From: a virus
Length of the DNA: 64,000 nucleotides
IMG/VR virus record: IMGVR_UViG_3300029267_002727
Location: 1 to 64,000 of that record
Strand: one strand, 5' to 3'
This document shows positions 6,939-37,635 of this stretch, piece by piece. The position numbers were made by a program, and so were the translations under genes. The notes beneath the pieces are model-generated. The model was not told the origin of the DNA. It did not search any database and saw only the letters and a program-made list of their open reading frames with translations. The first letter of the stretch is position 1. Each line of letters begins with the position of its first letter.

Positions 6939-7348
6939 GTTACAGTCGAGTCGTCAAGAATCTGAAATGTCACGTTCCAATACACGCCGGACGGGTCTAT
7001 GTTCACGATGCCGCCCCGGTCAATCGAGAGGTACCCGGTGACCATGTTGTCCGTGATGTTTACGTCGTCGTGATAGTTTGGGATGAAGTAGACCTGCTTA
7101 CCGATCAGCCCCCGAAGGGTGAGCATCTCTGTCAAAGACACGCGAACTGTAGCCTTGTCCTCCTCGAATTGGTACGGGTCTCCAGAGCCGTCCACGACAC
7201 GATGCACGTGCAACCTGCCAGTCACGCTACGCTCGGACACCAGTGGAACGGTGGGCGTGTGGTCCCACGAGTCATGTAACACGTGGTAGGTTGCCACGGG
7301 TGGGTTTACTGTGTCCAGGTAGCAAATATCTTGTATGCCGTATGCCAT
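6935..7348 (-). CDS. Putative distal tail (Dit-like) protein
   Basis: 137 aa, directly after the TMP; assigned by synteny only. Confidence 0.45.
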   Translation of the reverse strand: MAYGIQDICYLDTVNPPVATYHVLHDSWDHTPTVPLVSERSVTGRLHVHRVVDGSGDPYQFEEDKATVRVSLTEMLTLRGLIGKQVYFIPNYHDDVNITDNMVTGYLSIDRGGIVNIDPSGVYWNVTFQILDDSTVT

Positions 7349-10300
7349 TATCTGCCCCCAATCACGCCGCCGGTGGTATCCTGAGATCCAGGCGGGATGT
7401 TTTCGTAACCGGGTGGCCGGTAGTAGAGTGTGCTGTCATAGCTTGGCGTCGATGCGGCCGCGGCGCCCATTTTCGATAGCCAGTCAGACGCGAGAGAGTT
7501 TGCGCGAGTCAGAGCGGTAATCAGGTTCTGTGCAAACACCCGCTGGAGGGCCACTGCGTTCTCCAGGCTCTGGTTGACCGCCATCTGCACGGCATTGATC
7601 GCGCGGGTCTTCTCCTCGAGTTGCTTCTGCATGTCAAGCTGTTCACGCGCCATGTCGATGTTGAGGCGCGCCCCGTGCTCCCGGATATCCTGGAGCTCGT
7701 TCTCCAATGCCCTGCGTTGCTCGATGTAGCTTCTGTACCGGGACTGGTACTCGTCTTGCAGCTTGAACCGTTCTAGGAACTGTCGCTTCTCGCGCTCGAG
7801 ATCTTCCTTGGCCCACTGCTCCCGGACATCCAGGCGCTCGCCCTGCGTCTCGAGACGGCCCATCCCCATCGCGTACTGGATGGTTTGGCGGTCCTGCTGC
7901 TTCATGAGGGCCCTGCGCTCGCGCCCGGTGGCGTAGCGCATCTTCTCTTGGATGTCCTCCTGCCCCCAGGCGTATTGGAGGGTCTGTTGAGCCCCCTGGA
8001 AGGCCAGGTCCTCGCGCTGCCAACCAAACTGGACCGGCGTGCGCTCAGCCTTGACTTGCCAGTTCTCCATAAACTGGCTGAACTGAAGTTGGCGCTGCTG
8101 CTGCTGGTATTGCTGGGTGAAGTCCTCCCAGATCCGACCCAGGTTGCGGAGTTCTCGTTGGATAGCGAAGGAGCCGCGCGTCTCGAACCCCTCGAAGTTG
8201 CCGCCGAATTGGGAAACCTCGCCCCATTGCTGCTTGCGCTCTGCCTGAGCGAACTGGAAGTCCTTGTACTCGTACTGGAGGCCCAACTGCTCACGCTGAA
8301 GGCCCCGGAGACCCTCTTCCTGCACCAGGCCCGCGTACTCACCCATCCTGCCCACATCGACGCCGCTCGCAGGTCGGAACCCCTCCAGGAACCCGCCGTA
8401 CATCTCGGTGGTGCCCATCTTGAGGCCGCTCGATTCAGTGAGGGGGCGAAGCTCCTTGAACATCCCCTCTAGGGCACGTACACCAGAGGGGTCCGTATGA
8501 CGAATCTCGTCCATGAGCGCCGTGAACGGCTCTGCGATCTGGCCGGCGACGTCGAACTGCATGGCTCCAACCTGTGCCGTGCCGCCACCGACGTTCCCTG
8601 CTCCAATCAGGTTGAGCATTTGCTGGTCGCCCTGCATGAAGCGAGTAAAGTTCTGCATGGCTTCGATGTTGCCCCCGAACCCCTCAGTAATTCCGGCTCC
8701 AGTTAGGCCATATTGAGCCAGTTGGCCCTGGAGTCCCATTTGTGCCTGAAGGAGAGGCATCTGCTGAAGGCGCTGTTCCTCTACCGGGGCCGCCCCTTCT
8801 CCCAATTCCGGTTCGGCCGGCTCAAGGCCGAGCAGGCGCGCCTGTTGAGCTTGCGCCCCCCACTGGCCGAGTGCGGCCTGGCCCAGGGCATCCAGGCGCT
8901 CGAGTTCTGGCTCACCGCGCCCGGTGTACCAGCGCCCCTCTTCTTCGTCCCACATTCTCTGCTGGCGACCGAAAGCCATCTCGCGCACTTCTTCGCCTTC
9001 CATGCCGAATTGGGTGAGGGGTTGCCACTGCCGGGCTATCCATTCAGAGCGCTGTGCCTGGCCGGGAGACACCGCAAGCTGCTGGTCCATAACAGCCTGC
9101 CAGTTCGATGGGTCCATGCCCCACTGTTGCGCGACTTGTTGGAACTGTCCGGGCTGCATGCCGCGCATAGCCATCGCAGCAAACCTGGGATCTCTGTAGA
9201 CGTCTCGTATATTGGTCTCGTCGGGTGTAGCCTGCATCCAGGCCTGCGCCCCGGCCATCGCTTGCTCTGGCGCCATCCACTCGGGCGCGTAGAGGCGAGT
9301 AGCTTCTTGTACTGCTGCGAGGCGACCGGCGCCAGTCAGGCCTGCCAGTTCTCCCGATCTGAGTCGCTCTCCGTACGCTGTAAGTTCGACTGGCGGGCCC
9401 TGAGTCGCCCCCCTGGAAAGATTGGGGCGCGCCCCTGGCGCGTACCTGCGATCGGACATAGCCGCCAGTCTGTAGTCCCAGCCGGCTGACGGGCCCTGGG
9501 CAGCCGCGAGCGCCATCTTTTCCCTGTCGCCCATAGCCTGTTGTGAATAGCTTGTAGTGCCGTACAGGGCAGCCAGCGCCGCGATCGGTAGCCCAACGCC
9601 AGTGGCTGAGAGGCCGGCTATGCCGGCAAGGGAGCCACCCACCAGGCCGGCCCCGATCGCAGGTAGTCCAATGCCAGCGGCCTGCGCCAGTCCACCGCCA
9701 GTTACCCCCTGTTGCGCCCACCCCCATGCACCAAACGCAGCCTCGCCCACCTGCCCCTTAAACTGTTGCTGCTGGGCCTGGTAGGCCATAAGCTGCATGG
9801 CCATATCTCCGCTGGCGACTTGACCCATTGGCATCCCGACAGACGCCACCTGTGCGGCGGCCATTTCTTGCTGTGCGGCGATCGGTATCTGGCCCATGGC
9901 GTACCCGCCAGTCATACCCCACAGCCGCTTGAGACGCATAAGTTCCCAGCCGCTCGTTACCCCTCTGACCATCTTGTCTGCGCCGCGTAGCGGCCCCCAG
10001 GCCCCGAGGGCACCCTTCTGCCACTCCGGCGTTCCTGCTGGCGGGCCACCCCGACCGCCGTCCCCACCATCTCCTCCCGCCGCCAGGCGATTAAACTTGG
10101 CCTGCTGCATGAACTCGTCCATGCGGGCCAGGTTCTCCATTCCCGGGAGTACGTAGGTGCCACCCTCTTGCGCGGTCAGCGTTTCCCCGGCTCCCCGCAA
10201 CTCCCGCATTTCCGCACCCTGCCATGTTTGCCGCAACCCACGCTCGACGTTTTTCTTCCATTGGAGCGTCTGGTTGGTGAGCTCCTTCATCTCCTTGGTG

Positions 10301-13300
10301 AACTCTTCTGTCCCCTCGACTGCGGGGCGCACCGTCTCGTTCCACGTATCCAGGTTCTTGGCGAGCATTTCCACGGACGTGCGGAACGTTCGGGCGCTGA
10401 CACCAAGAATGCGCTCCACCGGCGATCCACCCTGAGCCTCTCCTGTCTCTGACACAGGACGGTTTCCAGCCTGTACTGGGCGCTGCGGAGCGGGCGCGGC
10501 AGTAGCAGCGGGCCTACTCGGCGGCTTTTGTCCGCCACCCTGACCTTGCTCGATCACCCATCGGGCGTTCATAGCCTCTTCTTGCGCTTCCTTGTCGCTC
10601 ATCCCGGCCGCTATCGCTCGGTCGTATGCCTGCTTAGCAGCGGCACTGGCTTGCGCCGCCTCCGGGCTACTAGCATCTATTGAGCCAGCAGGTGTCCCGC
10701 CGAACTCGGCCTGCTCTGAGAATGTAGTAGCCTCGGGCGGGGTTGTGGACGGGGGCTGTAAGCCGGCTTCCTGCGAGGTGATCCCGTACTCGGCCTCCAA
10801 GGGCGCCGCGGTACTGACAGGCCTTGGTAGCGGGGTGCCGGCCTGCGTCGTCATTGGCGCACTTGCCACGTCCATAAATTGCCAGCCGCGCTCTTCTGCT
10901 GGGGCTGTGCTTCTGGACTTGACGAACCCGGCCCCTAGTCCGGCCTCGTGCACCGCCTTCGCGCGCGCTACCGCCCAGTCATTATATTCTTCGGACCCGG
11001 GCCTCACCCCCTCTGGGGGATGCTTTGACATTGCCAGCCGCCACGACTTGATATCTTTCGTGGCTTCGGCAAGTTGCCCGCTCTGTAACCACTCCTCGGG
11101 GAGATTAGCCAGGAAGCTCTCTGCTGCCGACTGCTCCTTGGCTAATTTCGCATTGGCTTGTTCCTGCGTTTGCCCCTCGAATGGCGTTGCTTCACGTTGG
11201 CGCATTTTGGTCTTGGCGCGCTCGACAGCACTCACCGTTGCCGCGCGACCAAGTGGCGACTCCAGCATCCTCTCTTCGCCACCGGCATAGCGGGTGAGCA
11301 TTCTCCCGACTTCGACTTGTTCCTCTGTACCAAGTCCGCCAGCAGCTATGCGAGCAAATTGCTCTTCCATGGCCCCGATGTTGCCCTCGGGGGCAATGAG
11401 CTCGGCGGCCTGGCGTGGCGTCAGCGCAGCTTCTTCTTCTGACAGGGAGCCTGGTTGCACCAAGCTCTTCAGGGAACTGAGCAGGTTCTGTTGCATGCCG
11501 GCTAGCCCGGTCATTCTCCCACCACCTGGCTTCCCACTGGCTGTTCTCCAGCCACCAGTCCAAGGCTTGTATCCACGGAAGATGTCTGTGAACTGCTGAA
11601 GTGCTGGGGGTAACTCCTTGGGTCGCTGTGCGGTCTGGTAGGTCATATTGAACAGCGCTTGTGCTGCGCCCAGCCGCTCGCCACCACCCTTACCCATGCC
11701 GGCCGCGCGCATTAGGTTCTCGTAGGTGTTGTAGATCCCGCCGATTCGCTCTCGGAGCTCGAGATCTCCTGCGAGGGCCTTCTGCAATTCTTCTGGGGTG
11801 TATTCGTTCCACTCAGATACATCCAGAGCTTTGTGCATCCCCGCCGCGCTACCAGGGCCAGCCCCAACCTCCCCGGCCAACTCACCGGCACCCCAGCCTA
11901 CTTGCTGCTGAGCCATCTCCCTAAGTTGTTCTCGTGTGGCGAATGGCGCTTCCTGCCCGGCGATCGTCATGCCGCCACCTTCGCCACGTGTTACCCTGCC
12001 CAGCCACATGCGCATCATCAGGTCGGCGTCCCAGTCGCCGGCACCGGACTGTGTGAGTTCCTGGCTTGTAATAAACGGTGTTTCTTCACTGAGAAGGACA
12101 CCCTTCTCTGATGCTGCGCGTGGGTGTATCGCGCGACCGGCAACCTGGAACGGCTCGTCGCCAACAACGGGATACCTGGTAAGCGCCGCGGCAGGGACGG
12201 GCAGGCCGGCCTCGCGTGCCTCCTCGATGCCCATCTTGCTGCCCTTGTACCAACGCCTCTCGAACTCCTCTGCCTCCCTTGACCCTGGCTTGATGCCGTA
12301 TCCGCGCAACACCGCTTCTACTGGTGCCTGGAACTCCTCTGGCGCCAACGCTGGGTCACCATGGATCACACCACCCTCGCCCCGCTTAATGAATGCGCCG
12401 GTAGCAGCGCGCATCATTTTTCTGCCAAGGCCAAGTTCTGCCTGCGCTCCGATGGCCCTCTCCATAATCTTCTCGTACTCTCCCTCGCCATAGCCGCCCC
12501 GGCCAGTTGCGAGGGCCTGGAGGGCTTGCCCGTAGCGCCAATTAAACGCTGTGACCTCTTCTCCCTCTACTCCGCCATGTGCCCGGAACCTCTGCGCAAC
12601 GGCAGGCGCAGCCAGATAGCGCCCTCCACCGATCGAGATCGGACTGGTTCCGTATTGTTCGGCTGCCTGCTCCAGGATCGCGCCCTGCATCATCCCCGGA
12701 GGAATATTCCTTGGTGTGCCTTCCTCTGTCATTCCGACGCGCGCCTGGGCACGGACCTGGGCGCCGGCCATGAGTTCCCTGAGAGATTCCTTGGTCGGGG
12801 AAATTGTTCCCTGCGGGGTCTCGAACTCGCCGGTGCTGGCCAGGGCGGCATTGACGATACCCTGATAGGTCTCTCGCGTGCCCTGGGATTCTGCCATCAC
12901 ACGCTGGTGCATCTCTGGGTTCACGCGCTCCATACGCTCGAGCTCGCGCGCACTGTAGAACGGCCTGCGTGTGGGGAAATTGCGCCCGATAGGCGTAAAC
13001 GTCTCACCCATCATCAGGGTGGGGACCTCGGCGCTGAACTTGTACATCCCCTCACCCTGAGCCTCCCATGTGGCCCCCGGGATCTTCTTGGAGAGCTCCT
13101 CCCACCCTCTGCTTCCCTCATGTACCATCCTGGTATACCGGACATTCTCGGTGATGTCAGGAAGCATTTGTTGGAACGCGCGCACAAGGGGCTCGCCGGC
13201 CTCCTTCCACGTCTCCGGCATCTCGCCGGTGTACCCCTGTTCTGCGAGTAGCGCCTGGAGCCTCTCTGGCTGCTGAGCCATCATATACTGCCAGGCTGTG

Positions 13301-15303
13301 CCCAGTGGCTCCTTGTACTGCATCAGCATCTCGATATCACTGCGCCCCGTGAATGCCTGGATATCACCAACGGGCAGGGTTTCTTTGGTGCCGCCCGTCT
13401 TTCCGTACAGCGCGGCCCTTTCGGGTGCGATACTGCGTTCAAATACGGCCCGGTAGCCGCCGCCCTCCCTCTCTGCTATGTCGAGTAGCTCCGCCTGTTC
13501 CCAGGCCCCCCTACGCAGCAGGTTAAGCGGGGACGCCCCTTCAAACATCCTTATGTCTTCACCGACGCCCCACTTGGTGCCCACCTTTGCGAGTTCTTCA
13601 ACCGGGAATCCCTCGGGGACGTCAATATCCTTGGTGTAGCGCTGTGACACGCGCTCGATCGCGCCCTCTCCCAACATACCCATGCCGGCAGGAGTGACAT
13701 TCATCAATGGCATTGCTGCCCTTAACAAGGTCCCCCGCTGAGGCGTTTCGGAGGCGGGACCGCCACGCATAGCCGCCGGAACAGAGGTCTCCCGAAGGCC
13801 CTGCGCTGTCCACTGATAGATATCGAGGCCCTCATGTGATCCCAGGAGGGCGGTACGCTTGGCCAGCTTACTCTCGCCAACGGGGGTTTTAACGGATCCC
13901 GGCGTAGAGCCAGGTAGCCAATATCCAGATTCTGCTAGTGTACTAACGGGATAGAAAGCGGAGGACCCCTGGCGCGTCCAGATAGGCTCATTTGCACCCA
14001 GCGCCGTCTCTGCCTGGGACCACTGGGTGGCACCGGGCATGCGTCCATACTGTTCCTCCTGTTTGGCACCCCACGGCATCTCTGCTCTACCACGGACTCT
14101 CCGGTGCTCCTCCATGTAGCGCCACTCACGCGGAGAGTACGGGTCCTTCATCTTCTCCAGGGTGGGATCATAACGCGCCTTTGGCCGCGCGCCAAACCGA
14201 GACGTCATTTGCTGCTCGAGGTAGTCGCGGGCCGCCTCCGGCGTGCTGGATTCTCCAAGGCCCTCCTTGAGCATGCCCCTGAGCTCGCTCTGGGTATATC
14301 CGTACCTCATGTAATCAGCGAGGACGGTTTGGTATTGCTGCTGGCTGGTCTCGGCCCTTGCCTGGGCGGCCTGCGCGGCTTGTTGCTGTTGCTGGAATTG
14401 GTGATAGGGGATCTGCGTCACCTCGCCAGTGGAGCCGACCACGCCTATCATGGGGTTGGTGGGGCTCCCCGCTGGCGATGCAGAAGTGCCAATTCCTCTA
14501 GAGATCGCCTGGGCCTGCGGCGTCATCTGAGACGACACAGCGGTGCCGGGAACGGGTGCCCCCCGGGCTTGCCCCATCTGCACAAGCTGGTCGAGCAGCC
14601 TCTTGGTGGCACTAACGTCTGCCAGGGCATCGTGCGCCCCAAACTCCGGGAGGCCGAGTTTCTTACTGATAGCACTCAGCTTATACGACCCGCCAGCCTC
14701 CTGCCTGTTGACGACCCTGCGAGCCAGGGCGAGCGTGTCAACTAGTTGCATGCCATGCAGACTAGACGATGGAGGGGCAAACCCAATATCGAACGGTGAG
14801 TTGTGACCGACAGCGCTCTCCACGCCCCCGACACTGGCGATTAGACGGTCTAGCTCGCCCCATGCCTCCTGCTGTGAGGGGGCGCCCTGTAGCTGCTCGG
14901 GGCCAATGCCGTGGACGGACTGAGCTTCCGGGTTGATTGGCACCCCACCAGGGTCGATATAGGTGTTGTAGGAGATGGGGTCCCGACCAGGGACGTGGAT
15001 CTGCGCGCCAAGCTGAATGGCGACATCCTTGGAGGTAAGGCCGGTGGTCTCTACATCGAAGACGACGTGTGATCCAGGGGTTGGGTTTTGTTGTGTAGCC
15101 GCTGGGGCAAATTGGGCCTGAAGCACGGGGTATTCAGCTATCACTTCTGGTGGCACCGGCTTGCCCGCCGCCAGGGCCTGCCTTACATACTCGGCATGGT
15201 CCTCTGCATCGCCGTAGCCGCCTTGCCATTGCTCGCGGCGTGCAGCCTCCATAAATTCCTGTTGGCTCATTTCCCAGAATGGGCGTTTAGCTGATACTGC
15301 CAT
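7348..15303 (-). CDS. Tape measure protein fused to an N-terminal DEDDh 3'-5' exonuclease and a two-barrel (DPBB) RNA polymerase-like region (2651 aa)
   Basis: Follows the tail tube and frameshifted chaperones. Exonuclease motifs: FDVETTG (D83/E85), HNSPFD (D172), HDALAD (H224/D229). Beta'-type DPBB motifs: GGVIHGDPAL, LTRYP (R1043), GDWDAD (D1090/1092/1094). C-terminus has a hydrophobic G/A/L segment and a long Q/E/R coiled coil. Confidence 0.8.
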   Translation of the reverse strand: MAVSAKRPFWEMSQQEFMEAARREQWQGGYGDAEDHAEYVRQALAAGKPVPPEVIAEYPVLQAQFAPAATQQNPTPGSHVVFDVETTGLTSKDVAIQLGAQIHVPGRDPISYNTYIDPGGVPINPEAQSVHGIGPEQLQGAPSQQEAWGELDRLIASVGGVESAVGHNSPFDIGFAPPSSSLHGMQLVDTLALARRVVNRQEAGGSYKLSAISKKLGLPEFGAHDALADVSATKRLLDQLVQMGQARGAPVPGTAVSSQMTPQAQAISRGIGTSASPAGSPTNPMIGVVGSTGEVTQIPYHQFQQQQQAAQAAQARAETSQQQYQTVLADYMRYGYTQSELRGMLKEGLGESSTPEAARDYLEQQMTSRFGARPKARYDPTLEKMKDPYSPREWRYMEEHRRVRGRAEMPWGAKQEEQYGRMPGATQWSQAETALGANEPIWTRQGSSAFYPVSTLAESGYWLPGSTPGSVKTPVGESKLAKRTALLGSHEGLDIYQWTAQGLRETSVPAAMRGGPASETPQRGTLLRAAMPLMNVTPAGMGMLGEGAIERVSQRYTKDIDVPEGFPVEELAKVGTKWGVGEDIRMFEGASPLNLLRRGAWEQAELLDIAEREGGGYRAVFERSIAPERAALYGKTGGTKETLPVGDIQAFTGRSDIEMLMQYKEPLGTAWQYMMAQQPERLQALLAEQGYTGEMPETWKEAGEPLVRAFQQMLPDITENVRYTRMVHEGSRGWEELSKKIPGATWEAQGEGMYKFSAEVPTLMMGETFTPIGRNFPTRRPFYSARELERMERVNPEMHQRVMAESQGTRETYQGIVNAALASTGEFETPQGTISPTKESLRELMAGAQVRAQARVGMTEEGTPRNIPPGMMQGAILEQAAEQYGTSPISIGGGRYLAAPAVAQRFRAHGGVEGEEVTAFNWRYGQALQALATGRGGYGEGEYEKIMERAIGAQAELGLGRKMMRAATGAFIKRGEGGVIHGDPALAPEEFQAPVEAVLRGYGIKPGSREAEEFERRWYKGSKMGIEEAREAGLPVPAAALTRYPVVGDEPFQVAGRAIHPRAASEKGVLLSEETPFITSQELTQSGAGDWDADLMMRMWLGRVTRGEGGGMTIAGQEAPFATREQLREMAQQQVGWGAGELAGEVGAGPGSAAGMHKALDVSEWNEYTPEELQKALAGDLELRERIGGIYNTYENLMRAAGMGKGGGERLGAAQALFNMTYQTAQRPKELPPALQQFTDIFRGYKPWTGGWRTASGKPGGGRMTGLAGMQQNLLSSLKSLVQPGSLSEEEAALTPRQAAELIAPEGNIGAMEEQFARIAAGGLGTEEQVEVGRMLTRYAGGEERMLESPLGRAATVSAVERAKTKMRQREATPFEGQTQEQANAKLAKEQSAAESFLANLPEEWLQSGQLAEATKDIKSWRLAMSKHPPEGVRPGSEEYNDWAVARAKAVHEAGLGAGFVKSRSTAPAEERGWQFMDVASAPMTTQAGTPLPRPVSTAAPLEAEYGITSQEAGLQPPSTTPPEATTFSEQAEFGGTPAGSIDASSPEAAQASAAAKQAYDRAIAAGMSDKEAQEEAMNARWVIEQGQGGGQKPPSRPAATAAPAPQRPVQAGNRPVSETGEAQGGSPVERILGVSARTFRTSVEMLAKNLDTWNETVRPAVEGTEEFTKEMKELTNQTLQWKKNVERGLRQTWQGAEMRELRGAGETLTAQEGGTYVLPGMENLARMDEFMQQAKFNRLAAGGDGGDGGRGGPPAGTPEWQKGALGAWGPLRGADKMVRGVTSGWELMRLKRLWGMTGGYAMGQIPIAAQQEMAAAQVASVGMPMGQVASGDMAMQLMAYQAQQQQFKGQVGEAAFGAWGWAQQGVTGGGLAQAAGIGLPAIGAGLVGGSLAGIAGLSATGVGLPIAALAALYGTTSYSQQAMGDREKMALAAAQGPSAGWDYRLAAMSDRRYAPGARPNLSRGATQGPPVELTAYGERLRSGELAGLTGAGRLAAVQEATRLYAPEWMAPEQAMAGAQAWMQATPDETNIRDVYRDPRFAAMAMRGMQPGQFQQVAQQWGMDPSNWQAVMDQQLAVSPGQAQRSEWIARQWQPLTQFGMEGEEVREMAFGRQQRMWDEEEGRWYTGRGEPELERLDALGQAALGQWGAQAQQARLLGLEPAEPELGEGAAPVEEQRLQQMPLLQAQMGLQGQLAQYGLTGAGITEGFGGNIEAMQNFTRFMQGDQQMLNLIGAGNVGGGTAQVGAMQFDVAGQIAEPFTALMDEIRHTDPSGVRALEGMFKELRPLTESSGLKMGTTEMYGGFLEGFRPASGVDVGRMGEYAGLVQEEGLRGLQREQLGLQYEYKDFQFAQAERKQQWGEVSQFGGNFEGFETRGSFAIQRELRNLGRIWEDFTQQYQQQQRQLQFSQFMENWQVKAERTPVQFGWQREDLAFQGAQQTLQYAWGQEDIQEKMRYATGRERRALMKQQDRQTIQYAMGMGRLETQGERLDVREQWAKEDLEREKRQFLERFKLQDEYQSRYRSYIEQRRALENELQDIREHGARLNIDMAREQLDMQKQLEEKTRAINAVQMAVNQSLENAVALQRVFAQNLITALTRANSLASDWLSKMGAAAASTPSYDSTLYYRPPGYENIPPGSQDTTGGVIGGR

Positions 15304-15625
15304 GGATGATGGTCTCTAGATTCGCTATCTCGTCCTGTGCCATTGCGTATGCGTTGGCGCACACGGCAAACTCCATGAGGAGTAGGTGGGGCTGATCGGA
15401 GGTTCCTCCCTCCCACCATGGGCCATTCTTCTCACAGAGCCTCCAAAGCCGATATGGCTCAGGCATCTCTGCATCCAGTCGCGGCACCAGGGCCTGCTTC
15501 CTGATCTCTCGCTGCTTGTCTGGGTGTGCGTGCTCGTACCAGCCTTGCAGGGCCCAGTTGTGTACCGCTTCTTCTAACTCCTCGAGGTGCGCTAGGAGTT
15601 TGTCTGGTCCTTTGGCCCTTCCCCC
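15287..15625 (-). CDS. Tail assembly chaperone, frameshift extension (gpT-like)
   Basis: Open -1 frame overlapping the end of the upstream chaperone and ending at the TMP start. Confidence 0.65.
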   Translation of the reverse strand, partial: GGRAKGPDKLLAHLEELEEAVHNWALQGWYEHAHPDKQREIRKQALVPRLDAEMPEPYRLWRLCEKNGPWWEGGTSDQPHLLLMEFAVCANAYAMAQDEIANLETIIHGSIS

Positions 15626-16080
15626 TCCGGCTGCCTCAAGTCCCAGTCTGGGTTCATTTCCCATGCCGCATAGCGTAGCGCGCGCGTCACGAGCGGGCTC
15701 TGGGCGCCAAAACTCTTCAAGAAATCACGGAATGTGCCCTCGACGTAGCGAGCGTGCATCTTGCCGCTGGAGAACTTGCAGAGCGGCTCCCCGTCAGGAC
15801 CGAAGATGTTCCCCGCGTCACACATGCAACGGAACACCTGCATGGCCCATACCTCGCGCATGCGCGAGTCACGGATCTCCTGCACCTCGTTTTCAGACCA
15901 TACCACGCGGCGCTCCGAGGACATCTGGTCGATCGCCATGCTGTCGGCCTCAGTGGCCTGTCGCACGATCACGTATGCCTTTTCCTCATTGGGGCACTCT
16001 CCCTCCAGCAGTTCGATTTGCGGAACGAGGTCTTGAAGATATATTACATCGGACACGGTTGGAAGGGCCTTGATGGCCAT
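15592..16080 (-). CDS. Tail assembly chaperone (gpG-like)
   Basis: ATG at 16080 after AAGGAGAG; lies between tail tube and TMP. Confidence 0.65.
   Translation of the reverse strand: MAIKALPTVSDVIYLQDLVPQIELLEGECPNEEKAYVIVRQATEADSMAIDQMSSERRVVWSENEVQEIRDSRMREVWAMQVFRCMCDAGNIFGPDGEPLCKFSSGKMHARYVEGTFRDFLKSFGAQSPLVTRALRYAAWEMNPDWDLRQPEGEGPKDQTNS
15619..15625 (-). other. Putative -1 programmed frameshift site G GGG GAA
   Basis: GGGGGAA is in frame (codons GGG GAA) near the end of the chaperone ORF; the downstream ORF is exactly in the -1 frame. Confidence 0.65.
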
Positions 16081-16090
16081 TATTCTCTCC

Positions 16091-16375
16091 TTAGAACAGT
16101 TCGTCCCTCGGTATCGAGGGTAGCGCAGGCCTCTTAGTGACCCGCTTGCGCTTCTTCTCGGCACATTCCGGGCACGGCTCTTTCGGCTGTAGCCCCGCAT
16201 CGCCCGGACCAGCGGCAGCTAACTCTATCCGTACTCCGCGCAGTGTCTTGTTGGCCGCTACCAGTTGGGCTTGGTGTAGCCTGCGCAGGAATGCGTTTGT
16301 TGCAAAGCCTGGTGGGGCAGAGCGGGACACAGCCCGCTCTGCCAAACCAAGCAGTTGAGCAAGGGTGATCTCCAC
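16091..16375 (-). CDS. Hypothetical protein (CxxC, basic C-terminus)
   Basis: GTG immediately after the tail tube stop; fills the gap in the operon. Confidence 0.45.
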   Translation of the reverse strand: MEITLAQLLGLAERAVSRSAPPGFATNAFLRRLHQAQLVAANKTLRGVRIELAAAGPGDAGLQPKEPCPECAEKKRKRVTKRPALPSIPRDELF

Positions 16376-17527
16376 CTACGGCAAGTCGTAGTCGGCCTTC
16401 GCGTTCTGTAACAGAATGGTGAACGGGTCACCGCTCTCTGTTGACAAAACCGTCGCCGTAACCTGCAACACGATCGGCCGGTTTGGCTGAACCCGGATAG
16501 GCCGGGCCTGCCAGGCCACGTTGTCCTCGGACGTGTCGCTGATCAGGCGAATCCGATAAGGCTCTGTACCGGAGATGTAGGTCTGTGATGTGAACTCGAC
16601 ATCCACATCGGCCTTGTAAACGATGCAAGTCGCATTGGCGTCTGTCAGGCCATCGTTCGTTGCCCCAGAGAATGTCGATACGTACAGACCATAATCTTCG
16701 ATCAGGATAGTTGCCGTCACGGTCACAGCGCGCCCCAGAACCGGGTAGTCGATCGGGTCGATGGATCCGATCTGGAGCGACTGGGCGGGCGGCAGCAGGG
16801 TGTTCACCACCGTTACGGATGCAGCCGTGGCCTGGAACGACGTACTCTCGACCTTGAAGTGCCCGGAGCAATTGGCCACCGGGAAGTGATCAAATTCGTC
16901 GTACGATGCGGTCCAGCCAGGGTTGAAGTCGAAGTCGTAGTCGCTCTGGTACAGCCGGGCCATGACATCCAGGTCTGCCGTCACGGGCGCGGCAGCGGCG
17001 CCGGTCACCGTGAGCGCGGCAACGCGCGCATCCTGTAAGATCTCGCCAAGTTCGTATGTCGATGTTGGATGTGGTAGCAGTCGCCGGAGTGTCAGGTATG
17101 GGATGAAGAACTGGTCGCTCGAGTAGAAGCGGAAGATGTGAGTGTTGATCCCGGCATCGGCTCCACTGCCACCGGCTAGGTAGTGCGCGATGGTTGTGTC
17201 AGACACGGTGGATACGTCACCCATTGCAGCCAGGAGCAGCCATCCAAAGCGGTTGTCGAGACGCGGAATAAGCGAGATGCCACCCGCGCCCCATGCGCCC
17301 GCAACGAACATGCCGCTTGGCAGTGCACGGCCGCCGATCTCTGGCGGCAGCGCAGCCTGGTTCTTCATTGGCCCGAAGGCCAGGTCCCGCGCGACGTAGT
17401 AGTAAAACTGGTTGTCGGTCGTGTTGGGGACCTCGAACCCGGCCACCATCTTGGCATGGTCGGTTCCGGCGCCACTTTGCTGGATGGCGGCCCCGATCAA
17501 TGCGTTATTGGGCATGATTAGTGCCAT
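16376..17527 (-). CDS. Major tail tube protein
   Basis: 383 aa, strong RBS AAGGAGG, position upstream of chaperones/TMP, beta-rich. Confidence 0.7.
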   Translation of the reverse strand: MALIMPNNALIGAAIQQSGAGTDHAKMVAGFEVPNTTDNQFYYYVARDLAFGPMKNQAALPPEIGGRALPSGMFVAGAWGAGGISLIPRLDNRFGWLLLAAMGDVSTVSDTTIAHYLAGGSGADAGINTHIFRFYSSDQFFIPYLTLRRLLPHPTSTYELGEILQDARVAALTVTGAAAAPVTADLDVMARLYQSDYDFDFNPGWTASYDEFDHFPVANCSGHFKVESTSFQATAASVTVVNTLLPPAQSLQIGSIDPIDYPVLGRAVTVTATILIEDYGLYVSTFSGATNDGLTDANATCIVYKADVDVEFTSQTYISGTEPYRIRLISDTSEDNVAWQARPIRVQPNRPIVLQVTATVLSTESGDPFTILLQNAKADYDLP

Positions 17528-24032: not shown

Positions 24033-24361
24033 TACGATCCCGCCTCCGATACCCGCGCCACGACATAGATCGTGCCGCTGGTGTACGCACTGACACGGGC
24101 CCTCATCACAGCCAGCCCGGCACAGTCCGCTCTATATAGTCCGGCAGCGGCGGTGGTTGTGGCTGCATTGCCGGTCGTCAGATTGGTCACCTTGATAGCC
24201 ACCCAGGTGCCGGTACTCAGCCTGGCCTCGAACGTGATTGTGCCGACGAATGTGCCCCAGACCTGAAACACGGCCGTGCTGTGGCCAGCAGTGCAAAGCT
24301 CCTTGCCATCGGCGGTTGCGGTAACCCCGTCCTGTAGCCTGCGATCCCTGTGTTCTCTCAT
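24032..24361 (-). CDS. Putative structural beta-sandwich protein
   Basis: GTFVGTITFEA...RARVSAYTSGTI pattern. Confidence 0.5.
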   Translation of the reverse strand: MREHRDRRLQDGVTATADGKELCTAGHSTAVFQVWGTFVGTITFEARLSTGTWVAIKVTNLTTGNAATTTAAAGLYRADCAGLAVMRARVSAYTSGTIYVVARVSEAGS

Positions 24362-25413
24362 ACTCTACCCTCCAGCATCTTCTGGTATGCAGCGCCCCAC
24401 CTGCGGTGCCCCGTCTTTATGTCTCGATTCTTGGTTACCCAGGCGAGGCCCTGCACGGCCAGTCTATGCCTCAATCTGTGATCGTCGATCAGCAGAGATA
24501 AGGCCTCGTACCACTCGCTGTTGTCAATTAAAAGTCCGTTGTGCTTGTTCTGCACGGTGCGACGATAAACCTTCACGTTGGTGCACGCTGGCACCGCTCC
24601 GCCCACCTTGCCGTTAGGTAAGCGCCTGGCTGCCGCCATAGCCTCCAGGGCCTTGATCGACGACTTTGACATGTTAAACCCATCCTCGGCATCCAGGCTA
24701 CAGCACACAATGTCGAATTGGCGCATCAACTGTGGGTACATAACGTATGGCACCGGATCGAGCTCGTGAAAGTTTGGCAATGAGCTCAAATAGTCCGGCG
24801 AGTACCCCGCCGCCAAGATGGTAATGTCTGGGTGCTCTCGAGCCAGCCTATGTAGTGCCCCCATCGGGAACTTCCAGTCAGCATAATGCGATGCGGTTCC
24901 AATGAACCCGATCGTGAGCCCTTTGTGCTGCCGTTCTGTATGATAGCTCTCGCCAGAGAACCACCCTACATCCACATGGTTCGGGAGCACGACAGGTCTG
25001 TGCTTCGTGTGCGCCTCCAGGCGGTCTCGTAGATACGGCGTACTAACGGTGACGTAATCTACATCGCGCAGGACGCCCTTGAAATCATCCCCACGCCCCA
25101 AGTCCCGGAAATCGTCCGTCAGGTCGTCGTCCGTGTCGAACACGACAATTCCACCATGCCGATGAAGAACGTCTATAAACTCGTGACGCCCGGCACGGCC
25201 GGCGAACAGCCTGGAAGTGAGATACAAGTCCCTCCCTAGAAGGTCGTTAGAACGCCCCTCTTCCACGATCGCTCGGATCTCTTTTTGTCCCAGGATCTCG
25301 ATCTTGTGCCTGGGGTCTTTGGCAAGGTGCTGTAAGGGTGATACCGCTCGGTAGTAATTGATCGCCGATATGCCGGTAACCTCAGAATGGCGCACAAACG
25401 CCATGGCGCGCAT
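24358..25413 (-). CDS. Glycosyltransferase (GT-B/GT4-like) in the head module
   Basis: YYR..P, VVFDTDDDL, VTVSTPYL, VLPN, IGFIG..SH, KS.IKALE motifs. Confidence 0.85.
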   Translation of the reverse strand: MRAMAFVRHSEVTGISAINYYRAVSPLQHLAKDPRHKIEILGQKEIRAIVEEGRSNDLLGRDLYLTSRLFAGRAGRHEFIDVLHRHGGIVVFDTDDDLTDDFRDLGRGDDFKGVLRDVDYVTVSTPYLRDRLEAHTKHRPVVLPNHVDVGWFSGESYHTERQHKGLTIGFIGTASHYADWKFPMGALHRLAREHPDITILAAGYSPDYLSSLPNFHELDPVPYVMYPQLMRQFDIVCCSLDAEDGFNMSKSSIKALEAMAAARRLPNGKVGGAVPACTNVKVYRRTVQNKHNGLLIDNSEWYEALSLLIDDHRLRHRLAVQGLAWVTKNRDIKTGHRRWGAAYQKMLEGRV

Positions 25414-25429
25414 CACGCCCTCCTTTTGT

Positions 25430-25771
25430 TTACGTGCCGCACAAATAGATGTAGACAGTTGTGTCAACGCTCGCCTGGAGCGAGAACGACGTGATACTCG
25501 TGCCGATCATCAACCACGCATCTGTGAATGACCACGACTCCGGCGAGAGCTCCTTGAACAACTGGACCGTGGCTGCATTCCCAGACACCTTGATGTAAAT
25601 GTACTGGATGGTACTCATTTGTACCTTGATTTCAGTCTTGGTGCCGGCCGTCAAGGATACAGACGGCAGGATCTGCTCCTCGTCATAACTGCGCCTGATG
25701 AAGCGGTCCTCTGCGTCAGCTAGTTGCAGGCCGTTGTTTCTGCGCTTGATTTCCAGTCTGGTTTCCAGCAT
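25430..25771 (-). CDS. Hypothetical (likely structural) protein
   Basis: ORF with GGAGGG RBS overlapping the portal end. Confidence 0.55.
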   Translation of the reverse strand: MLETRLEIKRRNNGLQLADAEDRFIRRSYDEEQILPSVSLTAGTKTEIKVQMSTIQYIYIKVSGNAATVQLFKELSPESWSFTDAWLMIGTSITSFSLQASVDTTVYIYLCGT

Positions 25772-33050: not shown

Positions 33051-33820
33051 TTGTTTTGCCTGTAAGGAATCGGCCATAGCCGCCCCGGCGTACCAGGGCT
33101 CTCCACATCTTCGTTTGAGAGACGCACGACATTCGTGAATAGCCCCCCTGGCCTGATGCGGTCCAGGACCGCGGTGTTGGGAATGATACAATGTCCACCA
33201 ATAAAGCCTGGCTGGTGAATGACATGCGGCAGGTTGGGCATTTCATTCACTCTCTGGGCTGTCATAAAGTCGGCTCCGACTTCATCACAGTAGCGCTGCA
33301 TTTCCTGTGCCCAGGCGACCAGAATGCCAGTGTACGTAGTTTGGAATAGCTTACCTAGCTCTAGGGAGATGGCATCTTTCATCACGGTTACCGTGAACCC
33401 TGCCTCTATCAGGGAGGTAGCAGCGTCGTGCGCAGCAGACTCCAGGGGGGCACCAACGAGCTTGGTGAAATCATGCAAATCCTTCACAAGCTGCCCGTGC
33501 CGACCGCGGACTGGGCTGTACGCCATTAGGCACGTCGTGCGGCGCTGAATCTCCCTCGTTGTACCCGGAAGAACCGTACTATGAATGATGCACGTCCCGG
33601 GACTGTACTCCTCGATGTACCCGAGAACAGCCTCGTTAAAACCCTCCAGGTCGCCCGGGAAGCAAATGTGCAAATACTCACATGTCCCCTCGTGCCTGTC
33701 CTCGACATCTACACCCATAACATCATTGCGATGCAAGACCAGGCACTCCAGAATCGCACTGCCGACCTCTCCCAGGCCCACTACGATGTGCCTTACGGCG
33801 CCTGCTACAATGTGTGTCAT
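33047..33820 (-). CDS. UDP-glucose/GDP-mannose dehydrogenase family protein (short form)
   Basis: VVGLGEVG, IHSTVLPGTT, SPVRG, ELGK, GFIGGHC. Confidence 0.85.
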   Translation of the reverse strand: MTHIVAGAVRHIVVGLGEVGSAILECLVLHRNDVMGVDVEDRHEGTCEYLHICFPGDLEGFNEAVLGYIEEYSPGTCIIHSTVLPGTTREIQRRTTCLMAYSPVRGRHGQLVKDLHDFTKLVGAPLESAAHDAATSLIEAGFTVTVMKDAISLELGKLFQTTYTGILVAWAQEMQRYCDEVGADFMTAQRVNEMPNLPHVIHQPGFIGGHCIIPNTAVLDRIRPGGLFTNVVRLSNEDVESPGTPGRLWPIPYRQNK

Positions 33821-34848
33821 GCCATCTTCTCCTTTACTTTGTCATAGATCCAGGCATACGTGCGCTCCATGCCCTCCTCCAGCGATACCTGCGGCTCATA
33901 CTTGAGCTCGCGGCGCATCAAAGATAAGTCTGCGTTTCTTCCCCTGACGCCCTGCGGCTTGCTGATGTCGTGCTCCAGGGTCGCCTTGTCCTCAATGCCC
34001 GCGCACCTGGCGGCGATCATGGCAAGCTCGTCCACCGACACCGATCGGTCGGTCCCGATATTCATAGGGGCCCCGAAGTCAGACTGCATGAGGGCCCAGA
34101 CCATCTCCACGCAGTCGTCGATGTAGCAGAACGACCGCCGCTGCTGGCCGTCGCCCCAGATCGGGATGTGGTACTCGCCCGTAATAGCCGCCTTGGCCAT
34201 CTTGTAGCACATAGCCGCCGGTGCTTTGACCCGGTTGTCGTTATCTGCGTCCCAGGCCCCCTCGGGCCCGAAGACATTGTGGAAGCGCGGGATACGAACC
34301 TCCACATGGCTGGCCTTGACGTCGCCGCGCATGTACATGTAGAGACTCTCGGTGAGTAGCTTCTCTCTTCCGTAAGCGTCTTCCGGGTGCCCGTCCCAGG
34401 CGTCGCCCTCTTGTAGAGGACGCGAGTCAGCGAACATCTGCCGCCGCACTGGGTAGACACACGCCGACGACGTGAACAGGAGGCGGCCGGGCTTCTCGTA
34501 GTCACGCCAGTTTACGCGCGCAGCCTCAGCCGAGAACAGGCTGATCAACATGTTGTTACGGAAGATGGTATAGTCGTGACTGGAGATAAACCCCATGCCG
34601 CCCATATCCGCTGCGAGGCAGTAGGCCTCATGAACACCATCGAACGCCTGGACGACGTTGGGGAACTCCCGGAGGTCGCAGTTCCAGTTGAAGAAATTGG
34701 GGCTGCACTCGTAGCCCTCTGGCTCTTTCCAGTCCACGCCGATCACGTAGCGCCCCTTCTCCTGAAGAAAGCGCACCAGGTGGTGGCCAATGAACCCGGC
34801 TGCGCCTGTCACAAGGGATACGACAGAGTTTTCGTCAAATGTCTTCAT
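33817..34848 (-). CDS. NAD-dependent epimerase/dehydratase (GDP-mannose 3,5-epimerase-like)
   Basis: TGAAGFIG, LAADMGGMGFI, SSACVYP, YGREK, KAPAA, WGDG.Q.RSF. Confidence 0.9.
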   Translation of the reverse strand: MKTFDENSVVSLVTGAAGFIGHHLVRFLQEKGRYVIGVDWKEPEGYECSPNFFNWNCDLREFPNVVQAFDGVHEAYCLAADMGGMGFISSHDYTIFRNNMLISLFSAEAARVNWRDYEKPGRLLFTSSACVYPVRRQMFADSRPLQEGDAWDGHPEDAYGREKLLTESLYMYMRGDVKASHVEVRIPRFHNVFGPEGAWDADNDNRVKAPAAMCYKMAKAAITGEYHIPIWGDGQQRRSFCYIDDCVEMVWALMQSDFGAPMNIGTDRSVSVDELAMIAARCAGIEDKATLEHDISKPQGVRGRNADLSLMRRELKYEPQVSLEEGMERTYAWIYDKVKEKMA

Positions 34849-36112: not shown

Positions 36113-37366
36113 TTAGCCTCCAAAACGAATCAGGGCGGGGATCTTGTTGGAATCCAAGAACCCCCACATGTCGATCACCGTTTTCCCAGAGAGGTCCATT
36201 TCCTCGAGAGCATGATAAGCCTCCCAGGGTGTCATGAGCACCAGTACGTCGCACATATCGACTACTTCATCGAGGGACGGCACACGATCACTGGTGGGGT
36301 CATGGTACCACACCACGGCCGCTGACGGGAGCATCTCGCCCAGCTTGATGCCGGGCGACTCCTCCATGATATCCACGCCGGGTTTGTACGTCAGGCCCAG
36401 GATCCCAATTCTGGAGCCGTAATGCCACACCTGCGCAGCGAGCCAGTGCGCCATCACATTCGTGAACGCCTCCACGCCGCCGATCAGGACGGCAGGCGTA
36501 TCTGTGATGCCCGCATGCGCAGACAGGGCCCGGCAATCGCGGGGGAAACATGGCCCCCCAGGCCACACACCAGGTGAGAAGTACCTATGCCCGATGCGGG
36601 AATCGTCCCCAATCGCCCCCAGGACATCCCCCGCGTTTGCTCCGGGTGTATTGTGACAGATCATCGCGACCTGGTTGGCAAGCTGAATCTTGGTGACCAC
36701 TGACACATTGAGCGCGATCTTGGCCACCTCGGCGCTCGCGACACTCATAAAACGGAACGGCACGAAATTGTCTTCCACATCGACGATACTGCGATAGTAC
36801 CGCGCCACGACATCGCTGGCCCGCTCCGTGTCAGCGCCGATCATGACCATGTCCGGGTGCCTGAAATCTCGGACGATCCGGCCCTGCGCCACGAACTCTG
36901 GCGAGTAGGTAATGCCCCACTCTTCACCCAGTACTCCAGCGGCCCAAGCGGACAACGCAGTAGCGATCTCTCCGTTGACGGATCCTGGCATAACAGTGCT
37001 TACGATGTTGACGACCTGATACTCAGAGTTCTTGCACATGCCTAGCCCGATACGCTCGCACGCGTCAAGGATGAACGCGTTACTGAACGACCCGCCACGC
37101 TTGCTGGGCGTCGGAACAATCACATTGATCAGTTCGCCCCATGAGCAGGCCTCGGCGATGTCCGTAGTGGCTTGCAGTTCTTTGCCGCCGTACTCAGCTA
37201 CCAGATCAGTCACGCCTGGCTCCATCGTGTCTACGTCGCCGGCATTGACCCTGTCCACCATCTCTTGATTGATATCTGCACAAAACACCTCGTGCCCGCA
37301 GTCCGCAGACACCGCAGCCAGGGGTAGCCCCAGCCGGCCACAGCCACCCACGTACACTACCTTCAT
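36113..37366 (-). CDS. Nucleotide-sugar dehydrogenase (UDP-glucose 6-dehydrogenase family)
   Basis: GCGRLGLP, VPTP, STVMPG, SPEF..G, AEVAK, GGPCFPRD, LGLTYKP. Confidence 0.9.
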   Translation of the reverse strand: MKVVYVGGCGRLGLPLAAVSADCGHEVFCADINQEMVDRVNAGDVDTMEPGVTDLVAEYGGKELQATTDIAEACSWGELINVIVPTPSKRGGSFSNAFILDACERIGLGMCKNSEYQVVNIVSTVMPGSVNGEIATALSAWAAGVLGEEWGITYSPEFVAQGRIVRDFRHPDMVMIGADTERASDVVARYYRSIVDVEDNFVPFRFMSVASAEVAKIALNVSVVTKIQLANQVAMICHNTPGANAGDVLGAIGDDSRIGHRYFSPGVWPGGPCFPRDCRALSAHAGITDTPAVLIGGVEAFTNVMAHWLAAQVWHYGSRIGILGLTYKPGVDIMEESPGIKLGEMLPSAAVVWYHDPTSDRVPSLDEVVDMCDVLVLMTPWEAYHALEEMDLSGKTVIDMWGFLDSNKIPALIRFGG

Positions 37367-37635
37367 CAGTCTTCCCTCCTGGTTTCGACTAGGTCGCTCT
37401 CGCGCACGACGCCCCCCTCGATGAAGAATGCGGCGCGCCACTCGATCTCACACCCCAATAACAGCGCTACTCGGTAGGCATAGTATGCAGGGTTTGCGCC
37501 GTGCGGTGCGTCTATGATCGCCCTGCCGTCGATGTACATGACGGTAACCCCATCAAAGAATACGAACACATCGGGGCCATCCGTTGTGACCTCCGCTATC
37601 TCCTCCCCGTTGATTGTATGGATCTCAGTCTTCAT
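37366..37635 (-). CDS. Hypothetical protein
   Basis: Overlapping junctions within the operon. Confidence 0.5.
   Translation of the reverse strand: MKTEIHTINGEEIAEVTTDGPDVFVFFDGVTVMYIDGRAIIDAPHGANPAYYAYRVALLLGCEIEWRAAFFIEGGVVRESDLVETRRED

Follow-up and report, generated by a model that had tools for sequence, protein, structure and literature searches.

The 64,000-nt stretch of viral DNA analyzed here (positions 1 to 64,000 of IMG/VR record IMGVR_UViG_3300029267_002727; hereafter the window) carries on its minus strand, at 7348-15303, a single open reading frame (ORF) of 7,956 nt with no internal stop. The encoded protein of 2,651 aa begins, after a short helical segment, with a domain that is, judged from its sequence, a genuine and intact DnaQ-type DEDDh 3'-5' exonuclease lying outside every named proofreading-subunit family. 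This domain is followed by a linker, a two-barrel RNA polymerase (RNAP), a low-complexity spacer, and a tape-measure part, and the in silico evidence supports an exonuclease, RNAP, and tape-measure triple fusion encoded in one uninterrupted ORF. As for its role, we tentatively favor, while granting it somewhat less than an even chance, that the exonuclease may be an accessory domain, optional within the family, which sits at the N-terminal tip of a virion RNAP fused to a tape measure and would there perform tethered processing of DNA 3' ends at the site of genome entry.

An intact DEDDh exonuclease at the N-terminus had been proposed in an initial annotation made from the sequence, and this proposal is borne out by motifs, Pfam, PHROG, and PDB matches, invariant catalytic residues, and a predicted fold. 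The domain spans aa 75-245 (14569..15081, minus strand), and all the DnaQ motifs quoted in the initial annotation, whose interval 14580-15303 corresponds to aa 1-241, are found in the translation: FDVETTG at aa 82-88, HGI at 131-133, GHNSPFD at 166-172, VDTL at 188-191, YKL at 207-209, and HDALAD at 224-229. The five catalytic residues are invariant in a 49-sequence alignment; D83 and E85 form the D-x-E of ExoI, D172 is the Asp of ExoII, and H224 and D229 form the H-x4-D of ExoIII, which is of the "h" subtype. Furthermore, aa 80-236 align with positions 1-163 of the 164-position Pfam model RNase_T (PF00929; E 3.4e-19, 70.4 bits against a cutoff of 24). PHROG 192, whose annotation is "DNA polymerase exonuclease subunit", is hit at E 2e-32, and the closest solved structures in a PDB sequence search are the PolC exonuclease domain (1e-9) and Pol III epsilon (1e-4), whose catalytic motifs align with those of the domain. 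The AlphaFold2 model of aa 71-250 reaches a predicted local distance difference test (pLDDT) score of 88-98 in 10-residue block means, with a value above 95 for the domain, and shows an RNase H-like alpha/beta fold. Its best Foldseek matches, at E of about 1e-10, are RNase T, the exonuclease of DinG, the exonuclease of PolC, Cas2-DnaQ, epsilon, and ExoX, and the nearest folds in a viral library are phage exonucleases of the DnaQ/PolC type. From this active site and fold, the exonuclease is predicted to be catalytically competent.

The profile matches also give an indication of the kind of DnaQ enzyme concerned. The 24 NCBIfam matches consist entirely of DNA-type DnaQ families (DEDD exonuclease PRK07883, PolC, epsilon, and the DinG exonuclease), with no RNase T or Orn/oligoribonuclease family in the set. 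Their scores all stay far below the equivalog cutoffs (best 45-75 bits versus cutoffs of 71-1043), and a Pfam scan of the whole protein finds no PHP or DnaE domain. The identification of the domain as a named Pol III epsilon or PolC proofreading subunit was therefore rejected, the equivalog cutoffs being missed and the protein having no C-family DNA polymerase domains. In fold and DEDDh motifs, the domain resembles Pol III epsilon, the PolC exonuclease, and the DEDD exonucleases associated with DinG and GIY-YIG, which give the best sequence and profile matches. Unlike the DnaQ proofreaders, it is joined to an RNA polymerase and a tail protein and not to a DNA polymerase or a helicase.

Downstream of the exonuclease, aa 320-1290 (11434..14346, minus strand) are supported by modeling as a single-chain two-barrel RNAP core, with two double-psi beta-barrels and a DxDxD metal loop. 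Indeed, the AlphaFold model of this region, built from a 42-sequence family alignment, has a pLDDT of 93.3 and a predicted template modeling score of 0.91, and every top Foldseek match is a beta' or Rpb2 chain of a multisubunit RNAP. VIA-align, which is independent of Foldseek, places only two-barrel polymerases at the top ranks, namely Pol I Rpb2, vaccinia RNAP, and P74-26 gp62 (Z 10.0 each), followed by QDE-1 (Z 8.8) and P23-45 gp96 (Z 7.5). The first half of the model resembles beta/Rpb2 and the second half beta'/Rpb1. The predicted metal-binding loop of the beta'-like barrel reads DWDAD (D1090, D1092, and D1094; 12022..12036, minus strand); its three Asp residues are at least 90% conserved in family alignments of 62 and 42 sequences, and variants among relatives include DFDKD, DTDGD, DTDAD, DFDED, and DFDLD. 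At the sequence level, a PDB search with the polymerase region yields nothing above chance level, RNase_T is the sole Pfam match in the entire protein, and the polymerase and tape-measure parts are recognized by neither Pfam nor PHROGs. In a tblastn search against 50,697 phage records, the exonuclease domain alone was matched, never the rest of the protein.

The tape-measure part covers aa 1635-2651 (7351..10401, minus strand) and is preceded by a spacer rich in Pro, Ala, and Ser. It has a charged helical C-terminus and hydrophobic Gly/Ala-rich segments which hydropathy places at aa ~1870-1917 (nt ~9544-9708), and it shares 38-44% identity with the C-terminal ends of further giant proteins of 2,400-2,600 aa. 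No tape-measure family in Pfam or PHROGs matches this part, and the protein Atlas gives a weak lead only (score 0.89) to a TMP_3 cluster. The position of the gene supports its being in the tape-measure slot, after a tail tube protein gene (16376..17527, minus strand; Pfam Phage_tube_2, E 5.9e-11) and a candidate pair of tail assembly chaperones (15287..16200, minus strand). The latter consists of two ORFs, 15592-16200 and 15287-15664, of which the second lies in the -1 frame; they overlap by 73 nt and stand between the tail tube gene and the 2,651-aa gene. In the overlap, no canonical X_XXY_YYZ slippery heptamer was found and a GGGGG run is present. Since family searches return no match for either ORF, the chaperone label is drawn from position and frame alone; the C-terminal sequence of the second ORF is also kept upstream of the homologous gene at locus L007. 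PHROGs give no match for ten neighboring structural genes. Altogether, the triple fusion put forward in the initial annotation is sustained by the single uninterrupted ORF, the tape-measure slot, the confident RNAP fold, and the DxDxD motif found family-wide.

A profile of the polymerase region, built from a shortened alignment and searched against 1.84 billion representative proteins, retrieved 70 proteins, 48 of them with E<1e-30 and most of them 2,000-3,200 aa long. The members come from environmental metagenomes and amount to about 70 representatives at 50% clustering; the start of the polymerase varies among them from residue ~5 to residue ~370. A scan of genome contigs with the family alignment gave no relative. 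With a local hidden Markov model of the exonuclease, the domain was found in only five of about 75 family members (P0001, P0006, P0007, P0122, and P0137), and the D-E-D-H-D set is kept in all five, down to a mutual identity of ~30-40%. When three close relatives are compared, conservation is highest in the exonuclease (74% and 68% identity), ahead of the polymerase (54-69%), the linker (28-51%), and the N-terminal helices (21-30%); to stand-alone relatives, its identity does not exceed 37%.

In the tree of the polymerase region, the exonuclease-bearing members fall into two separate, well-supported clades beside exonuclease-less sisters, which implies at least three changes by gain or loss. 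In the tree of the exonuclease domain, the five tape-measure exonucleases and one stand-alone protein of 196 aa form a single clade (Shimodaira-Hasegawa-like approximate likelihood ratio test support, 96), which stands apart from PolC and epsilon-like proteins, on long branches that call for caution. This distribution fits an exonuclease that was acquired once and afterwards underwent losses or was transferred from one tape-measure gene to another. A Pfam scan of whole proteins, made on the 18 members whose N-terminal extensions are longest, detected only RNase_T (in two members) and HhH motifs; most of these extensions match no Pfam family whatsoever. Extensions of 150-370 aa before the polymerase with no Pfam family are seen in P0003 (aa 1-327) and at the N-termini of P0098, P0101, and P0111, and such unmatched extensions may be further uncharacterized cargo modules. 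In P0006, the exonuclease is preceded by Rho_N/HeH motifs, which also open the L007 protein, a member lacking the exonuclease. In another member, P0037 (2,606 aa, L002:9374-17191), which has no exonuclease, aa 1583-1643, located after the polymerase and before the tape-measure part, make up a DNA-binding insert of the ComEA-like HhH_3 type (Pfam E 2e-8).

The fusion of the exonuclease to the rest of the protein is real. An identical protein, called from M18, occurs on two contigs of a public protein collection. P0006 (743 aa, partial, from a metagenome-assembled genome (MAG) labeled "Anaerolineae bacterium") is 64% identical over residues 68-786 of P0001, and P0007 (755 aa, partial) is 52% identical over residues 71-756; in both proteins, which stem from separate assemblies, the exonuclease, the linker, and part of the polymerase align colinearly. 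A DEDDh domain likewise opens the distant, full-length members P0122 and P0137, with none of the five catalytic residues lost. At the nucleotide level, public metagenome data contain the whole stretch in four runs, two from sediment (2018) and two from seawater (2021), that belong to three coded studies. Run X5 contains only small diverged pieces of it, and no RNA run is listed among the sequencing runs with the stretch. Support across 14500-13400, an interval for which the initial annotation had asked that read support be confirmed, was obtained from Logan contigs that were assembled separately for three of the runs, measure 37-46 kb, and have a depth of 15-21; they span 13300-15700 with no difference and no indel, some of these runs being possibly the source sample. 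Because colinear relatives and run-level contigs cross the junction, an assembly chimera or a frameshift is excluded. The source contig does come from a metagenome bin with an estimated contamination of 7.6%, but, given these relatives and contigs, there is next to no probability that an artifact has joined a separate exonuclease gene to a tape-measure gene.

The closest known counterpart is gp96 of the Thermus phage P23-45, a tape measure of 5,002 aa whose N-terminal part is an active two-barrel RNAP with its core at residues 327-1124 (Chaban et al., Nat Commun 2024, PMC10770324). This RNAP is present in virions within the full-length protein and transcribes the pre-early genes beside the genome end that probably enters first, and Chaban et al. 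propose that it works at the pore made by the tape measure (PMC10770324). Residues 1-326 of gp96 are reported to be mostly disordered and non-essential, and the words exonuclease and nuclease are absent from the paper (PMC10770324). Systems of the gp96 type also occur in P74-26, G20c, and TSP4, and the corresponding PDB entries are 8H2N and 8H2M. Like gp96, the protein described here is a giant in the tape-measure slot, in which a single-chain two-barrel RNAP with DxDxD begins ~320 residues in and a hydrophobic tape-measure part makes up the C-terminal region, and its predicted fold aligns to 8H2N (Z 7.5 over 333 residues, at 14% identity). It is, however, half the size, with no sequence similarity detected in the PDB sequence search at E<=10, and the gp96 metallopeptidase domain was not found in the 2,651-aa protein. 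Moreover, while gp96 is disordered before the polymerase, the corresponding region here is predicted to hold a folded DEDDh exonuclease. The two proteins may be analogous fusions that were derived separately.

Injected polymerases inside giant virion proteins, injection being here an analogy, are also represented by gp66 of the crAss-like phage phi14:2 and by the N4-like virion RNAPs, but these are cargo proteins of the podovirus type and not tape measures. The gp66 type is also two-barrel according to a passage on it in PMC10770324. No exonuclease module on gp66 or N4-like virion RNAPs was encountered in the literature covered, and none on a tape measure or on any virion RNAP in the literature searched. 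The triple architecture had been presented in the initial annotation as undescribed; this does not hold for the RNAP-tape-measure fusion, which has been known since 2024 from P23-45 gp96 (PMC10770324), whereas the exonuclease add-on does appear to be undescribed. To date, proof of tape-measure-fused virion RNAPs comes from a few Thermus phages only; the present locus belongs to a separate family, and it suggests that the region before the polymerase, disordered in P23-45, can carry a second enzyme which, by analogy, would enter the cell before phage gene expression.

How such an enzyme might act can be sketched by analogy. In tape measures, the C-terminus lies at the tail tip and the N-terminus nearest the packaged DNA. 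If the protein is packaged in virions and injected as is gp96, the whole of it would be ejected ahead of the DNA; the hydrophobic C-terminal part would help to build an entry channel, the polymerase would begin phage transcription at the cytoplasmic mouth of this channel, and the N-terminus would leave last, immediately before the leading DNA end. A flexible linker of ~75 residues would tie the exonuclease to the polymerase and, with a tether of that length, the exonuclease would arrive where the leading end of the genome appears. There it might trim or resect the entering end, or act on other 3'-ended DNA, and so aid DNA entry and the first transcription. The DNA-type profiles, the DNA-binding motifs, the lack of any other enzyme type at this place, and the strong conservation would point to such DNA 3'-end processing rather than to one weapon among many.

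Several points weigh against this proposal. Some 70 of the 75 family members have no exonuclease, so that the domain is dispensable for the core mechanism. Genes that read inward from the end that enters first would lose their template strand to a 3'-5' exonuclease acting there, and resection that exposes a template would therefore work only for outward-reading ones. The assignment to DNA from profiles is not decisive because enzymes of the DnaQ fold such as RNase T also cut RNA. Housing a folded exonuclease-polymerase unit of 145 kDa in the tail tube, and passing it through, would be a difficulty, one that P23-45 would share. Finally, activity and presence in the virion are predictions drawn from sequence, model, and analogy only.

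An injected nuclease directed at the host or its defenses, maybe released by proteolysis and acting on host DNA from nicks, on host RNAs, or on linear defense oligonucleotides of the guide or multicopy single-stranded DNA type, is an unlikely explanation but one to be taken seriously. It would suit an optional and patchy N-terminal add-on, gained and lost on the polymerase tree as an accessory weapon might be; delivery would take place before any phage gene is expressed, as suggested by the P23-45 work (PMC10770324), and the low-complexity linker could serve as a cleavage site. Yet no other effector-type Pfam domain was found at this position in the 18 relatives with long extensions, most of which match no Pfam family, and an exonuclease left uncleaved would have a short reach, tethered as it would be to an envelope-embedded tape measure. 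Cyclic signaling nucleotides are not substrates of DEDDh enzymes, which depend on a free 3' end, and we consider cleavage of cyclic defense nucleotides unlikely.

The constant place of the exonuclease directly before the polymerase in the family, together with the presence of RNase T, a cutter of both RNA and DNA, among the best PDB folds, would also agree with a transcription-coupled exonuclease that acts on RNA 3' ends, whether it excises those that are misincorporated or backtracked, shortens transcripts, or disposes of RNA:DNA hybrids, and such an enzyme would resemble the exonuclease partners of other polymerases. Pairings of this kind exist in archaeal PolD (DP1-DP2) and in nidoviruses, where ExoN works with the RNA-dependent RNA polymerase; the likeness is functional only, and PolD DP1 is not a DEDD enzyme. 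To our knowledge, no DNA-dependent two-barrel RNAP has been shown to proofread. PolD DP2, too, belongs to the two-barrel enzymes (PMC10770324). An action on RNA 3' ends is nonetheless improbable in our view: the profile matches are all to DNA-type DnaQ families, and most family members manage without the exonuclease. In addition, two-barrel RNAPs possess an intrinsic transcript cleavage activity at their own active site. More ambitious still, and doubtful, is the idea that the exonuclease and the injected two-barrel polymerase work as partners, the former either editing and proofreading RNA 3' ends or, by resection, readying the entering genome end as template; either role, if true, would be a new way of starting a phage infection. 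An inactive remnant, or a structural or binding module that would, for instance, hold a DNA 3' end in the virion without cutting it, is very improbable. Nothing speaks for it directly, except that a DEDD fold lacking its metals can bind 3' ends without catalysis, and it is opposed by the retention of all five catalytic residues in five members, some of them only ~30-40% identical, by an exonuclease more conserved than its neighbors, and by a confident AlphaFold model. Should the exonuclease cooperate with the polymerase or process the incoming end, this would bear on how injected polymerases engage the genome during entry, and the two enzymes make up a compact pair that lends itself to testing.

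The segments flanking the exonuclease are less conserved. The ATG at 15303 is taken as the start of the gene because homologs share a conserved MAI/MAV start, and the exonuclease domain is unaffected by which start codon is chosen. The N-terminal module containing WEMSQQEF (aa 1-74; 15082..15303, minus strand) is modeled by AlphaFold as four helices with a pLDDT of 52-73. A short module before the exonuclease had been noted in the initial annotation and is indeed present, as helices at aa ~10-65, but its association there with polyvalent proteins finds no support, as no Pfam or LPD match was obtained and relatives carry Rho_N/HeH at this place. Aa 1-75 match no Pfam family even at E<=10, and aa 1-74 align loosely, at an identity of only 21-30%, with the Rho_N/HeH motif of P0006 and P0007, the motif of P0007 being similar by eye only, since Pfam called just RNase_T in that protein. 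The idea that the whole protein is a polyvalent giant with LPD domains was likewise discarded: no LPD or MuF-type module and no set of unrelated effector domains was recognized in it, and its relatives show only RNase_T and HhH. On the other side of the exonuclease, the linker (aa 246-319; 14347..14568, minus strand) is rich in Pro, Ser, and Gln and comprises a small beta-hairpin followed by the first part of a long helix, as judged from composition and the AlphaFold model; its residues 273-280 form a low-confidence stretch in that model, and it is 28-51% identical to its counterparts in relatives.

A second, non-virion RNAP was sought on the contig, and none was recognized by the DxDxD motif among ORFs of at least 250 aa, a further difference from the P23-45 system. 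Two candidates were checked: a protein of 583 aa turned out to be a ResIII/DEAD-box helicase, encoded outside the window at G000:C13:83704-85455 (plus strand), and a protein of 618 aa has no Pfam match. In the non-structural half of the contig, Pfam was run on just 8 of about 20 ORFs of this size, so a DNA polymerase could be encoded there. Amid the structural and packaging genes of the window, the minus-strand genes at 24358-25467, 33817-34848, and 36113-37441 encode a glycosyltransferase, a nucleotide-sugar epimerase, and a UDP-glucose dehydrogenase, respectively (PHROG E 5e-14 to 2e-61).

The phage contig, C13, is 105.7 kb long with a GC content of 58.8% and was assigned to a bin of 6.58 Mb, in which the 24 largest contigs besides C13 have a GC content of 61-65%. 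The RpoB of this bin is closest to those of Anaerolineales/Anaerolineae MAGs (72-85% identical), and the host may, by binning only, belong to the Anaerolineales/Anaerolineae. Window bases 1-89 match C13:97505-97593 exactly, and not the start of the contig, and the next 93 bases (to window position 182; C13:97686) are 95% identical between both places. A repeat of ~180 bp is thus common to an 897-aa tail-fiber-like ORF at the contig start and to a gene near 97.5 kb, and this repeat probably caused the contig break.

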